From IMG/VR virus record IMGVR_UViG_3300048574_000533, positions 1 through 24,310 of that record: a stretch of DNA of 24,310 nucleotides; one strand, 5' to 3'. Under the pieces are notes generated by a model that was given only the letters and a program-made list of their open reading frames with translations, did no database searches and was not told the DNA's origin. This document shows positions 7,876 to 18,154 of the stretch, one piece after another. The first letter of the stretch is position 1. Every line of letters starts with the position of its first letter. The stretch is from a virus. Taxonomy: Duplodnaviria > Caudoviricetes. The translations under genes and the position numbers were made by a program.

Positions 7876-10800
7876 GCGCTCAACCCCGCTGTCTCCAGAT
7901 GTTGGAGCAGCATCTCCACCGAACGTTCATCGCCTTGCACCTGGCCGCCGGCAAACCGCAGTTCCACCACTTTCGATGGGGCCGGAACAGCACTCGCGGC
8001 ATGAACCGCGCCGCCAGAGGCCAGATGCTGCACCGGCAACTGCGGCATGGCGCCGAGCAAACCACCCAGACGGTAGCCAATGCGGCTTTTTAGCCGCTTG
8101 GACAACTCGGCCATGACAACGTCAAACCGGCCGGCGTTGAAGGCCAGCGCAGCGGGAAGACCGGCCGCGCGAACAGACTCTTTGCGGATCATCACCTCCC
8201 CCGGTTCTCCCATCAGCGGCTCGGTATCGCCGCCGCCCCAACCAGGCAGGTGGCCGCCGCCAAGGATGTTGCGCACCCCGCCGCCAGCAGCCAAGGCTTG
8301 AATGATTCCGCCCCAGCGATAGCCGGCAACTCCGGGTGCGGCAGGGGCGCTCGCCTCGGTTGCCGCCGAGCGTTCCTTGACATTGACCCAGACTGTTCGC
8401 TCGGGAGTGACCAGTTTCAGAATCCGTTCTTCCACTGCCGCGACCGCTTCGGTTGACGCCGCCTGCATGCTCTTCCAGTTATTCATCCAGGCTTGACTGG
8501 CCTGATCCATGCCTTGGCTCAGATCGGCAAAACCGGCCTTCGAGATCAGGTTGTCCATGGCCCCGGCTGCGGCATCCCGCTGCTGGGTCAACACGTCGAT
8601 AGCCACCTGACCAGCCTGCTGCATGCCGGCCATAGAGGCCTTAAGGGCGTCACGGCTGCTGACCAGCACCTGGTCGCCGTCCTTGACCTCGGCGTTAAGG
8701 GCTTTGTAGGCGCTCTTGGCTTCATCAGCCAGCCGCTTGGCCTCATCAAATTTAAGGGCCGCTGCAGCCTGATCGCCCGCCTTCAACGCCTCTTTGCCCT
8801 GCTTGGCGGCCAACTGAGCGGCGGCGTAATACTCTGCAGCCTCTTTCTTTCGATCCTTCCAGGCTTCAATCTCTGTCATTCCTTCGCGGTTCATCTCCCG
8901 CAACTCGGCGGTCAACGACTGCTGACGGTCTGTGATCTCTTCCTGCAGGCTTTTGACCTGATCGGCATAGGCCTTGTACTGCTTCTGCATTTCCTTAAGC
9001 GCATCGCCGGTGGCCCGTTGCTGCGCGGCAGCCGATTGTTGAGCGCTTTCGGTGACCTTTTTCTGTTCCTGCACCTGAGTGGTCGAAGACTGTTTAGATT
9101 TGGCGTCAATCTCGGCAATCATCAGGGCATAGGTCTTACGGGCGTTCTCCATCTCCCGCTGAATCTGCCCGGTGTCGCCGCCGGTCATCCACTCCCAGGC
9201 CTCGCGGACTTTGAGCCAGCCCATGGTCAGGGTATGGGCCAGGGTGACGCCCGCCTTCTTGACGACGTCAAACTGATTGAGCCAGGAGCCGATTTGCCAC
9301 CCCACGGTCAAGGCGGTCATGGCCCAGGAGATCTGGCCGATTACACCAGGCACTGATCCCAAAGCCGCGACTGAATCCTTGGCCATGGCAAGCATTGCCA
9401 GCTTGGCAATCGAGGCCAATTTTGCGACCTGGCCAAAGACCAGACCGCCTGTGCCGATGGCCACCAAGGCAGCCGTAAGATTGGGCGCGGCGGCGGCCAT
9501 GTCCGCCATCACCCTGATCACCGTAATGATGGGGGCAAGGATAGCTCGCACCGCTGGCAGAAAAGTTGTGCCCAGATTGATGGCCGCCTCAACCACGGCG
9601 TTATTCAAAAGCTGCAGCTGATTCTCGGTGGTCTTGGTTCGTTCCTCAAATTCCTTGTTCATTGAACCGGCATAGCTGGCCTTGTCCGCCACCTGCCCCA
9701 TGGCGTCTCGATAGGTCCCTAGACTGCCCACCAACACACCGATATCGTCCTGAAACTCCCGACCAAACAGCCCAGTCAGCACCTCGGCCCGCTGCTGGCC
9801 GGAGAGCTTGCTCAAAGTCTCAAGCAGTGTGTCCAGCGCCCGCTGGGGATTCGACGCCACCTGTGCCGCCATCTCTTCGGCGCTCATACCGATCTTGCCG
9901 AGGGCCGTTTGGAACTCGCTGCTTTGCATGGTCGCGGTCTGCATCCGGTTGAGCATGGAGTTGATCGAGGTGGCCGCCACCTCGGGCGCCTTGCCTAAAG
10001 AAAGAAAAGCAGCCGACAATGCCGCTGTTGACTCTCTGGCCAGGCCAAACTGGTTGGCCGTGCCGCCGACCCTGAGCATTACTTCGACAATGTCTTTCTC
10101 ACGAGCCGCCGAAGTGTTGCCCAAGCGGTTGATCGTGTCGCCCAGCCCTTCGACCTCGCCGACAGCCAACTGATACACGTTCTTGATTTTGCCGATGGAG
10201 TCGCCTGCTTCCTGGGCGGTCATGTCAAAAGCGGTCGCCATCTTGGCGGTGACATTGACAAAAGCCGATATGTCCTGCGAAGCAATGCCCAGCTGACCAC
10301 CGGACTGCGCAACTTGCGCCAGTTCATTGGCCGTCAGCGGCAGTTGTCGAGTCATGGCCAACAACTCGGCACGCAGGGCGGCAAACTCTGCCGGCGTCGC
10401 TTCCACAACCTTTTTCACCCCGGCCATGGAACTCTCAAACTTGATCGCCTGGCTGATCGCCAACACGGTAGGAGCGGCCGCTGCAGCCACCTCGACCATC
10501 CCCGTCTTCACTCCAACCAACGCATCGCGCCAGCCTGTTGTTCGCCGGGTCAGTTCATCAATCCTACCACGCAAGACCACCTTGGCCTGAGCCAGCTCCG
10601 CCATGGAGAGTTTGCCGGAAGCGGCCAAGGCGGCGTATGCATTCCGGGCCTTGTCAATTTCCGCCGCAATCTCGGCATGGGGGGTGAGGCCCAGGGCGTC
10701 GCGGGCCTGGGCCACCTTGGCGAACTCCTGATACTTCAGCCTGGTTGCCTCGAGTTGTGCTCTCAGTGCCGTTTGTTGACCGGCAAGGTTGGCGGTCGAC

Positions 10801-16030: not shown

Positions 16031-16171
16031 GGTTGTCCTCGCCCCTTGCTGTTGTCCGGAACCGCGTTTAAAAACCGTTTAAAAGTCTTTGTATTGGATT
16101 GGCGAGGAGCCTCGCGGCCAACGGGGCGTATCAACCCAAGATTGAAAAACAGGCCGTTTTGTGCGCCGCGC

Positions 16172-16702
16172 TCAAAGATCAAGCAATCGCGCCCGAATCA
16201 CGTTGATCACCATGGTCCGATCCTTCTCCGCCAGATCCATCTCCGTGCCCCGGTTCAAAGCCAGATAAGGCCGGGCCGGGATGGTGACCTTCTTCCCCCT
16301 GCCCGCCTTGCCGCCAAACTGATGGATGGCGGCGTAGGGGATGTGCCCGCCGGTCCCGATGGCGACGCTGGTCTTACCCGCCTGGCTATGCACCGAGCCT
16401 TCCAGGTCGCCGCGCTCCCAGAGGATGCGCTTGCCGGTCAGGTAGCGTTTGCCTTTGGCCGAGAGGTAACCGTCCTTCTTCCAGCCCTTGTGCCTGGCCA
16501 GGCCCAGATGCAGGGTGACCTCGGCAAGCGGCGTCCAGGGCGTGCCGTCCGGCGCTGTTTGCGCCTTGAAGTTCTCGACCACCGAGCGTTCGTAAAAGGC
16601 TCCAATCGCCTGCATGGCCGGGGTCAAGTCCTGGGCCCGATCCCGCAAGCGGGTCAGCAGATCCCGCACCTCGCGGTCGTTGATTTCAACCTGTATGTCC
16701 AT
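16172..16702 (-). CDS. gpG: Phage virion morphogenesis protein (Mu gpG-like, 176 aa)
   Basis: DLTPAMQAIG...APDGTPWTPL...YAAIHQFGG...IPARPYL signature. Confidence 0.92.
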   Translation of the reverse strand: MDIQVEINDREVRDLLTRLRDRAQDLTPAMQAIGAFYERSVVENFKAQTAPDGTPWTPLAEVTLHLGLARHKGWKKDGYLSAKGKRYLTGKRILWERGDLEGSVHSQAGKTSVAIGTGGHIPYAAIHQFGGKAGRGKKVTIPARPYLALNRGTEMDLAEKDRTMVINVIRARLLDL

Positions 16703-16730
16703 TGCCAGGCTCCCCCTTGGGCCTTATATT
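16702..16730 (+). promoter_or_regulatory. Sigma70-type promoter pointing into the cloverleaf array
   Basis: TTGCCA (16702-16707), 17-nt spacer, TATATT (16725-16730). The predicted start at ~16737 is just before unit A. Confidence 0.7.
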
Positions 16731-16734
16731 CAAG

Positions 16735-17208
16735 GTGAAGGATTCGTTGACTGGTTCCACTCCCAGGGAACCGACCTCGCAGGGTTTGTAGTTGGCGAGG
16801 CCCAGGTGAGTCCTCTCCCTCCCTCACCTGGATCAACGAATCTCCTCACGTGAACGATGGTTCTCGTTAACCGGCTCGGCTAAGCCTGCCGACGCTCTGG
16901 CCTGAGGGCCCTTGGATGAGCGCAAGGGATGTGTTGGCGGATCCCCGGTTAGCGAGTTTTCTCAAATACGACATTCGTTGACTGGTTCTCCTCCAGCGAA
17001 CCAACCTCATGAGCCTTGTTGTAGGCAATGAGGGCCAGAAGGGTTCCCCTCTCCTTTCCCCCTTCTGGGTTAACGGATTTTTTGATCATGTTGCTCTTGC
17101 TGGGCTTCGTTGACCGGATCGGCAAAAGTGCCGGCGCTTCTGGCCGCCAGGGCTGAAAGAAGTGCACATGAGGGGCGGAAGAGCCCCTCCGGGTCAACGA
17201 TTATTTTT
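16735..17208 (+). ncRNA. Candidate structured ncRNA array: four tandem four-way-junction units (16741-16842, 16863-16956, 16973-17078, 17107-17200)
   Basis: Each unit is closed by TCGTTRAC...RTYARCG and encloses three hairpins. Units 1/3 and 2/4 show compensatory changes. G-U bias favours the plus strand. There is an upstream promoter and a T-rich tail after unit 4. Confidence 0.75.
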
Positions 17209-17220
17209 GCCTTCCCCAGC

Positions 17221-17967
17221 TCATCCAGCTATCCACTCTTCCAGTCCCATGTTCATGATCAGCTGCATCCAGACCTCAGCAATGTCCTGAGGCATCCTTC
17301 CCATCTTCTCCAGCATGGCGTCGGCCAGGTGTTGCTTGCCAGCCGTGCCCACGTTGTAATCCCAGCCCTTGTCCGGCAGATCCTGCCAGTTCTCAGGCCG
17401 CATCCGTAATTCTGGCCGGGCCGCCTCGTACTCGGCCCTGGTCGCCGCCACAGCCCTGCACTTGCACCCCCAGCCGTTGGGCGGGTAGTTGATCTGCCAG
17501 AACGGATCGGTGCGCGGCAGGATGATGCCGTCCATGGCCAGATGGTTGGGCCGTGGGTTGCGCACCCCGTCGTTGTGCACGTATTTCAAGAATTCTACGT
17601 TCGCGATCTCGAACTGCTGCCAGCGGCCCGCCTGGTAGGCGGTTTGGATATTGGTCCGCCAGATCAGATCCGATCTCCAGGCAGGCCCACCGCCCTGCAA
17701 TTGCCAGCCGTAGCGTTCCACCAAGGGCCGGAACTGCTTGCGGAACGCTCTGATGTCCGTGCCGCCGGCAATGGCCTTGTCCGTCATCTGCCGCAGTTCG
17801 TTGAGGAGGTCTGCCTGATACGCTCCGGCGCTCATGAACCCCTTGCCGTGGGCGGAGCCTTCCAGTTCGTCCCACTTGGTCGTCGGGATGTTGAGTTTAT
17901 CGCGGAACCAAGCGCTGGCCTCGGCAAAGGGCAGGCGGAAGACGTGCTCGAACTCAGCGGCTTCCAT
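17221..17967 (-). CDS. gpF: Mu gpF-like head morphogenesis (minor head) protein (248 aa)
   Basis: RTNIQTAYQAGRW, RPNHLAMDG, DPFWQINYPPNGWGCKCR and PDKGWDYNVG motifs. Confidence 0.93.
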   Translation of the reverse strand: MEAAEFEHVFRLPFAEASAWFRDKLNIPTTKWDELEGSAHGKGFMSAGAYQADLLNELRQMTDKAIAGGTDIRAFRKQFRPLVERYGWQLQGGGPAWRSDLIWRTNIQTAYQAGRWQQFEIANVEFLKYVHNDGVRNPRPNHLAMDGIILPRTDPFWQINYPPNGWGCKCRAVAATRAEYEAARPELRMRPENWQDLPDKGWDYNVGTAGKQHLADAMLEKMGRMPQDIAEVWMQLIMNMGLEEWIAG

Positions 17968-18154
17968 GGCCTTGTTGCTCCTGGTACGGGTATTCCCTGG
18001 CCAGACGTTCCAGCTCGCGCCAGTCGGCCATCATTTTGGCCTCCGGAACCTCAACGGCCTCGCCCTGATACAGGTTGCCGGCCACATACAGTCCCAAGAC
18101 AATCACCAGGAGCAACATCCCTTTCTGAATGCAGTCCCATGCCCAGCGGTTCAT
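17954..18154 (-). CDS. Small single-TM hypothetical protein (66 aa)
   Basis: ATGA overlap with the portal stop and a GGAGGT RBS. Fills the portal-gpF gap. Hydrophobic run MLLLVIVLGLYVAG. Confidence 0.65.
   Translation of the reverse strand: MNRWAWDCIQKGMLLLVIVLGLYVAGNLYQGEAVEVPEAKMMADWRELERLAREYPYQEQQGHGSR

Follow-up and report, generated by a model that had tools for sequence, protein, structure and literature searches.

A tandem array of structured RNAs in a Mu-like provirus and its linkage, in related phages, to a predicted virion-delivered nuclease

The locus analysed here raises the question of what a Mu-like provirus keeps in the gap between its genes gpG and gpF, which consists of four closed, multi-branched RNA units. 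The window, by which we mean the whole stretch of 24,310 nucleotides, codes on its minus strand for the virion morphogenesis protein gpG (16172..16702; PF05069) and for a short, 248-aa form of the MuF protein gpF (17221..17967; PF04233, E 1e-16). The latter contains the MuF N-terminal domain and is located between the portal gene and gpG in the head module. The closest named relatives of this gpF are encoded in genomes of Desulfobulbaceae and neighbouring sulfate reducers, which are therefore the likely host group. Two further elements were observed close by, namely a 66-aa ORF with a hydrophobic stretch in the portal/gpF interval (17954-18154; no PHROG match and a weak Pfam match) and an AT-rich, repeat-like element in the interval between gpG and the protease gene (16066-16084), which recurs in the related loci L229, L233 and L235 and is possibly a late-promoter activator site. 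As set out below, the gap contains members of an RNA family that is absent from the catalogues searched and whose genes are strongly associated with a predicted virion-delivered nuclease.

The four units are all located on the plus strand, comprising unit A at 16741-16842 (102 nt), unit B at 16863-16956 (94 nt), unit C at 16973-17078 (106 nt) and unit D at 17107-17200 (94 nt), with linkers of 20, 16 and 28 nt between A/B, B/C and C/D, respectively. All 32 stem arms named in the first-pass annotation were located in the order given there, and the folding check returned a z-score of -6.07 for the whole region, with none of 100 shuffled sequences being equally stable. The individual plus-strand z-scores amounted to -3.2 for A, -1.9 for B, -4.9 for C and -5.1 for D, and units B, C and D folded better on the plus than on the minus strand. 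The lowest-energy fold of unit B differs from the previously proposed three-hairpin fold, which is 3.8 kcal/mol higher in energy and is the one backed by covariation (see below). The division into four units of about 94-106 nt was retained, but they are not four unrelated RNAs: they represent two alternating four-way-junction subtypes, A/C and B/D, ordered A then B, and the array in the window consists of two A-B pairs. The description of the linkers as unrelated had to be dropped, since the A-B linker is conserved among homologues.

A single sigma70-like promoter, absent from the first-pass annotation, was detected just upstream of the array at 16702..16730 on the plus strand (TTGCCA-17-TATATT; 10/12 matches; one site found versus 0.2 expected), from which we infer a transcription start near 16737. 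It overlaps the start codon and the ribosome-binding site of gpG on the other strand, and its orientation agrees with the claim that the array is read opposite to the late operon. Comparable -10 boxes precede the arrays of L007, L100, L222-L225 and L239. The last unit is followed by a U-rich tail on the plus strand (17201..17209), where a terminator scan made no call; runs of T5-T8 are present after the last unit here and at six related array ends, and the tail is likely the end of the transcript. As to a protein-coding frame across the region, which had been considered before, none is open through all six A-B cassettes, and the four overlapping ORFs of the array region gave no credible Pfam match. 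Contigs from the RNA libraries of five studies (X15-X19) map to the array, most of them with 95-100% identity, and indicate presence only, since they carry neither strand, ends nor level and missing cover is uninformative. Within the same limits, as contigs cannot rank genes, long contigs over 19.9 kb fall solely on the array in X16 and X17, and the summed depth over unit B reaches 466-582 in X18. One contig of X17 links unit B at position 16863 to a different upstream unit end, indicating that another array variant is present in that sample.

We compared the array with known RNA families and repeat elements. Rfam gave no match for the window up to E 10, as expected from the statement that no known family was recognised, and none over 20 related loci; over ten more loci it returned only CRISPR repeats (L243) and a tRNA (L133). 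BLAST of the array against annotated phages and plasmids yielded no match, and neither ARAGORN nor RF00005 recorded a tRNA in the window. Integron attC cores are of the form RYYYAAC...GTTRRRY, and CRISPR arrays consist of identical repeats with spacers. The array shows only short partial direct repeats, and its arms have GTT first and AAC last, so that the earlier exclusion of tRNA, CRISPR and attC was borne out. A role as packaging RNA, as played by the pRNA of phage phi29, was ruled out because close relatives lack any gap at this position.

In many relatives, gpF occurs in long forms with C-terminal extensions. Of 22 such extensions obtained from the gpG search, 17 carried PBECR2 or PBECR3 domains that passed the Pfam cut-off. 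According to the available text of PMC5512222, PBECR domains are predicted RNases that the virion delivers, with a helix-meander fold and an active site made up of a His within the N-terminal helix together with a C-terminal Ser/Thr, while their targets are given as guesses only. The extensions associated with B-type RNAs form one clade of about 116 aa with a KYERIR-like tail, and they stay below the Pfam cut-offs, with weak PBECR1 matches in 4/6 (E 0.002-0.075) and none in 2/6. In the Atlas clusters nearest to them, PBECR families (0.90-0.93) are present on 10-49% of the members. A structure model of this domain reached a middling pLDDT of 68; Foldseek returned nothing significant for it (best match a CDI system chain, E 0.11), and a PDB sequence search had no match. 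The top rows obtained with VIA-align were BrnT (Z 5.7, rmsd 3.5, 74 residues aligned) and CDI complexes, and the comparison with the colicin D tRNase gave Z 4.8 (rmsd 3.5, 86 aligned). The top structural matches of the model are thus mostly RNase toxins or toxin-immunity complexes, at Z values of 4-6 that may reflect a common arrangement. On the basis of these models, we predict that the extension of B-linked gpF is a BECR-like RNase domain. The gpF of the window stops at the very point where this domain starts in the gpF of L176 and L178, and a profile of the domain found no match within the 24.3-kb record, which is itself about 61% complete. Because gpF ends just before the nuclease domain, the RNAs of the window are orphans.

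Next to the nuclease, the B-type RNA is encoded singly and tail-to-tail with gpF, and the 3' arm of its closing stem is antisense to the last codons of the gene, which read Ile/Val/Leu-Arg-stop in most of the nuclease-linked loci. Because of this overlap, the linkage is in part physical, and the conservation of the closing stem need not mark a processing signal. In order to avoid a protein-first bias, we ran an RNA pattern over viral contigs, and 19 of the 89 matches were true B RNAs. A convergent, predicted nuclease domain followed within 650 nt downstream in 13 of the 14 non-redundant B RNAs versus none of 70 other pattern matches; several of these loci had come up before in the protein search. 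A census of 214 gpF genes (125 clusters at 90%, the window being merged with L001) pointed in the same direction: among the clusters with a located gpG, a gap of at least 80 nt precedes gpG in 73/81 long but only 6/29 short forms, and of the six gapped short forms, four are arrays and two are long genes that are broken. The gaps of two of the 73 long forms (L233 and L235) hold a different element instead of an RNA. Of the 67 gaps measuring 80-200 nt, 46 had a promoter-like site in antisense orientation, compared with seven in sense orientation, 6.4 expected from shuffled sequences and 3/31 in gap-less loci. Fold z-scores below -2 were obtained for 29/67 gaps versus 2/31 gap-less controls; a fixed-window fold score separated the classes poorly and was discarded. 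The longest sense ORF over the 67 gaps codes for 59 aa (median 30), and 18 of them have room for one of 40-59 aa, which makes a tiny immunity protein possible at some loci. Extra ORFs between the promoter of the RNA and gpG were observed in L080, L118, L130 and L181, so the site takes protein cargo as well.

The presence of the RNA also follows the predicted active site. Upon aligning 37 related extensions, the His together with the Ser/Thr was found in 23 of 27 RNA-linked domains versus none of ten RNA-less domains, with the labels assigned by reading the loci, not blind, and the counts uncorrected for kinship; the His is missing from its column in 4/27 RNA-linked domains, while the B-linked domains of the alignment carry both residues. 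The alignment thereby shows that the RNA is lost where the predicted catalytic residues are lost. Extensions without the His and without a gap before the next gene were observed in L111, L113, L123, L134-L136, L180 and L217, and these are likely dead domains that lost their RNA.

The structure of the B family was supported by covariation, as had been suggested as a check. Among 25 B RNAs, in an alignment that was fitted to the structure, double changes occurred at 23 of 34 pairs, a value matched in none of 500 shuffles and far above that of slid controls. In addition, the loops vary in concert: all nine RNAs with GCC in loop 1 carry the pairing GGC in loop 3, and 15 of the 18 with GGC in loop 1 carry GCC or GTC alone, while two have both and one (L196) is a truncated match. 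Supported branches of the B tree force at least two switches of this pair, and the near-identical loci L258 and L263 differ by exactly the loop 1/loop 3 double change. This covariation leads us to predict a 3-bp loop-loop contact resembling the elbow of a tRNA, represented in unit B of the window by AGCC in loop 1 and GGC in loop 3, missing in unit D and not seen in A or C. Unit D scores as a diverged B-type RNA (37.8 bits, E 1e-6, outside the training set) which keeps the four stems and has lost both kissing-loop motifs, as has the B RNA of L251. All B units taken from arrays without a nuclease group in a single clade (99/98), which is nested in the nuclease-linked RNA clade of L176, L178 and L242 (100/99). 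Units B and D therefore belong to the nuclease-linked RNA family.

Each nuclease clade is accompanied by its own RNA family or fold. The RNA linked to the extension in L133 scores as a tRNA with RF00005 (35.8 bits) and is not called by ARAGORN. RNAs with tRNA-like D- and T-loops were observed convergent with other gpF extensions in L133 (4261-4339), L181, L179 and L131. At least three further uncatalogued folds, each with its own extension clade and one of them with CUCCC in its loop 1 and GGGAG in its loop 3, were noted at loci coding for PBECR2 (L017, L022, L049, L125, L155) or PBECR3 (L036, L048, L055) and at L117, L138 and L175.

The convergent layout, together with a promoter placed over the start of gpG, would also suit a type I-like silencing mechanism, in which the opposite-strand promoter and its RNA, by interfering with transcription or by forming a duplex, repress leaky late-operon expression of the gpF-nuclease in the lysogen, and the fold only stabilises the RNA. 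The loss of the RNA from loci with a dead enzyme agrees with such a mechanism, as does the RNA-library contig of X15 that runs from unit B into gpF (16925-17635), the strand of which is not given by the contig. Still, we regard it as unlikely, because the RNA and the nuclease gene overlap by only about ten bases, and neither the loop-loop covariation nor the tRNA mimicry is required by it. It also leaves unexplained the solo copies on host chromosomes and the stacks of non-cognate RNAs described below.

The site varies strongly among relatives, as had been anticipated for the gpF-gpG position, with 0, 2, 3, 4 or 5 units. In the closest phages (L001-L006 and L011), gpF overlaps the start of gpG without any gap; two units are present in the L007 group, L224 and L239, three in L100, and five together with a second promoter in L222 and L225. 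The third unit of L100 (3752-3796) was observed to be a 45-nt stub with just the closing stem and the T run left. Phages with and without an array are intermixed in the gpF tree, where the sister of the window is the empty L001 (100/98); the array is therefore dispensable. Its absence from close relatives and the degenerate state of unit D and of some other last units might be taken to indicate a relic, that is, RNAs that stayed behind when the nuclease domain was deleted, decaying and duplicated by chance. This is highly improbable in view of the A-B order, promoter and stems conserved across divergent phages, of the RNA-library contigs on the arrays, and of arrays outlasting broken head genes, as in L222, L224 and L225, where the array was kept although gpF or gpG is broken. 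The idea that an arm of the last unit is an in-frame relic of gpF was dropped, as it applied to 3/7 arrays, which is the chance level.

Orphan copies are kept not only in decayed prophages but also in mixed cassettes with nuclease fragments and on host chromosomes. Locus L178 (4079-4660) contains the nuclease with its B RNA, followed by a nuclease-like C-terminal fragment with a different RNA and then by a second B RNA and a promoter, the likeness of the fragment to the C-terminus of another nuclease being judged by reading; gpG was observed upstream of gpF at this locus. L197 holds the cognate RNA plus an extra one. In L242 (1501-1790; genome G037), three RNAs are stacked, one with tRNA-like D- and T-loops and two of type B, adjoining a CRISPR-like locus and enclosed by an ORF that we take to be cas2-like and the end of an IS-split nuclease. 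L243 (1501-1600) and L244 (genomes G031 and G033) each contain a lone B-type RNA that has a promoter of its own and comes directly after a CRISPR array, the repeats of which match RF01330 in L243; the RNA is followed by a presumably nitrogen-regulator-like gene, and no phage genes were seen in 3 kb. Host genes likewise surround a lone B RNA in L253 and an A-B cassette in L251. A search of genomes G031, G033, G288 and G027, whose completeness is not given, returned no match to the nuclease domain.

Units A and C belong to the other subtype, with CUCC-rich loops, and score 96.5 and 87.9 bits, respectively, with their own model, both being part of its training set. The fold is kept among ten related sequences, with 94.5% paired and double changes at 6 of 33 pairs, and a pyrimidine CUCUCC-like tract in loop 3 is kept in all ten aligned copies. 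In several arrays, A-type RNAs score 25-44 bits on the B model and B-type RNAs 20-29 bits on the A model, while A and C of the window fall short of E 0.01 on the B model. We read A and C as a derived subtype that came from a B copy and arose once in the lineage. No A-type RNA was found beside a nuclease, either with the metagenome pattern (four loci) and the viral pattern (four loci, one known type) or with the A-type model over 100 loci. The model matched in 1/151 genomes of the order, 0/151 of the phylum and 2/119 of the family, none beside a nuclease. A looser A-type pattern was abandoned, as nine of its 13 matches were chance matches. All A RNAs found sit in nuclease-less arrays, which leaves half of the array in the window without a known partner.

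A search for antisense targets of the A and C loops gave nothing specific. An 11-nt perfect complement of loop 1 of unit A was observed on the minus strand near 9200 in the tape-measure gene; it lies within chance for six loops, as judged without a formal null, and is probably fortuitous. Duplexes between loop 3 of unit A and the start regions of several late genes come to -14 to -21 kcal/mol. A and C likely either cover another nuclease variant or have gained an anti-Shine-Dalgarno antisense role. Pairing of the CUCUCC-like loop with late-gene starts, together with the dedicated RNA family of each nuclease clade, would also fit a different scheme, in which the RNA serves as cofactor or guide of the gpF domain in a ribonucleoprotein effector, and the A type acts in trans as an anti-Shine-Dalgarno RNA, keeping phage or host messages from being translated, for superinfection control by antisense. 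This scheme is distinctly unlikely, because a cofactor is useless without its protein, yet orphans are retained, and because C-rich loops bind most ribosome-binding sites and no specific or covarying target emerged.

We favour, at a probability of roughly 0.55, the reading that the array confers RNA immunity to a virion-delivered nuclease and has been kept as an orphan array. Its ancestor would have been a single RNA gene located tail-to-tail with the predicted RNase domain on gpF. Going by the literature on MuF proteins, gpF would be packaged and injected with the virion. Its domain would act as an active BECR RNase cutting tRNA or mRNA. The RNA may take on a compact, tRNA-like shape by means of its four-way junction and the loop-loop pairing and bind the enzyme as a substrate mimic. 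A lysogen producing it constitutively would be protected from the gpF-borne RNase, and orphan copies would offset the nuclease that a superinfecting or neighbouring phage brings in. A bolder version, which we consider possible but would rather bet against, treats the tRNA-shaped RNAs with one fold per nuclease clade and the orphan arrays, which prophages and host chromosomes would gather and expand, at times next to CRISPR loci, as an RNA-based acquired immunity to toxins delivered by virions, with A re-purposed as an anti-Shine-Dalgarno regulator. The first-pass annotation had left the role open between superinfection control, a decoy for host defence and a guide or antisense function; the evidence favours a specific link to MuF-fused BECR-like nucleases, which is invisible from the window because its phage has lost the domain. 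Of the roles named there, decoys would be tRNA-like RNAs absorbing host anticodon nucleases or RNA-binding defence proteins, as does pseudo-ToxI of phage phiTE. The available text of PMC3475682 provides the precedent for such an expansion of a phage-borne RNA mimic, and tRNA-like members and a variable unit number exist here as well; we nevertheless deem this improbable, since neither the tight link to the intact domain of the phage's own gpF nor the retention beside CRISPR arrays in hosts is explained by it.

PBECR domains are found widely on MuF proteins, and a cognate RNA would open their targets and control to testing with a domain of about 120 aa and an RNA of about 100 nt. If immunity by RNA is the correct reading, RNA antitoxins would act not only on the ToxN-type families but also on virion-borne enzymes of the BECR fold, and an unannotated gap in many Mu-like prophages would be explained. 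The family would then be the first RNA immunity in a polymorphic toxin system, within the literature searched, and a source of natural tRNA mimics inhibiting RNases. A pairing of PBECR or MuF proteins with an RNA was not found in this literature, which leaves most subscription papers outside. PBECR and MuF are absent from the main text of PMC10690425, a collection of 10,006 candidate phage RNAs, and had no match in six of its supplements; the motifs may be listed unnamed elsewhere in its supplements. The pairing is not described in the available part of PMC11699363, and bioRxiv 10.64898/2026.08.28.747851, supplements aside, does not mention non-coding or tRNA-like RNA.

Among known systems, type III toxin-antitoxin systems (ToxIN, CptIN and TenpIN) come close, as they combine an endoribonuclease with a structured, pseudoknotted non-coding RNA, and their RNA families track the toxin clades, according to the available text of PMC5086642. 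In contrast, the enzyme predicted here is of the BECR fold and fused to a virion protein, and its RNA is mostly a single four-way junction of about 100 nt, convergent and with its own promoter, instead of repeats located upstream in one operon. The Pfam families of ToxN, CptN and TenpN were not recorded in 47 extension domains, which returned PBECR, MuF_C or LPD3, weak unrelated matches or nothing. The pairs thus differ from type III systems in three tested features, namely toxin family, bicistronic operon and short tandem repeats, and we propose only by analogy that RNA and nuclease may work like a type III pair. The pseudo-ToxI of phage phiTE represents expanded, phage-borne copies of an RNA antitoxin without the toxin (PMC3475682, available text); it counters a host defence toxin, whereas the ancestors of the present RNAs were partnered with a domain that is encoded by phages. 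The MuF polymorphic toxins share the MuF N-terminus, a variable, nuclease-like C-terminal domain and the occurrence of short and long forms, of which the window has the short one (PMC5576092 and PMC5512222, as far as available). Their known immunity factors are small proteins encoded downstream (PMC5576092, available part), a slot that is occupied by RNA genes here, and the available texts of both papers make no mention of an RNA partner. The DUF3800, drum and skipping-rope motifs resemble our families in that many folds accompany one protein domain in either orientation, often together with terminators (PMC5737381, available text). They are associated with another protein, and no such motif was matched by Rfam in our loci. 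The c4 antisense RNA of P1 and P4 is a cloverleaf phage RNA with loops complementary to a co-transcribed target and an RNase P-type CCA end, and cuckoo RNAs have C-rich CCUCC loops. The cloverleaf shape and, in A and C, the C-rich loops are shared by the array, which differs by having no Rfam match, 3' CCA or cognate target. Finally, CDI, Rhs and Maf loci carry stacked non-cognate immunity units and C-terminal toxin fragments and keep immunity genes without the toxin. The layout of L178 resembles these orphan cassettes, with the difference that the stacked units are RNAs instead of proteins.
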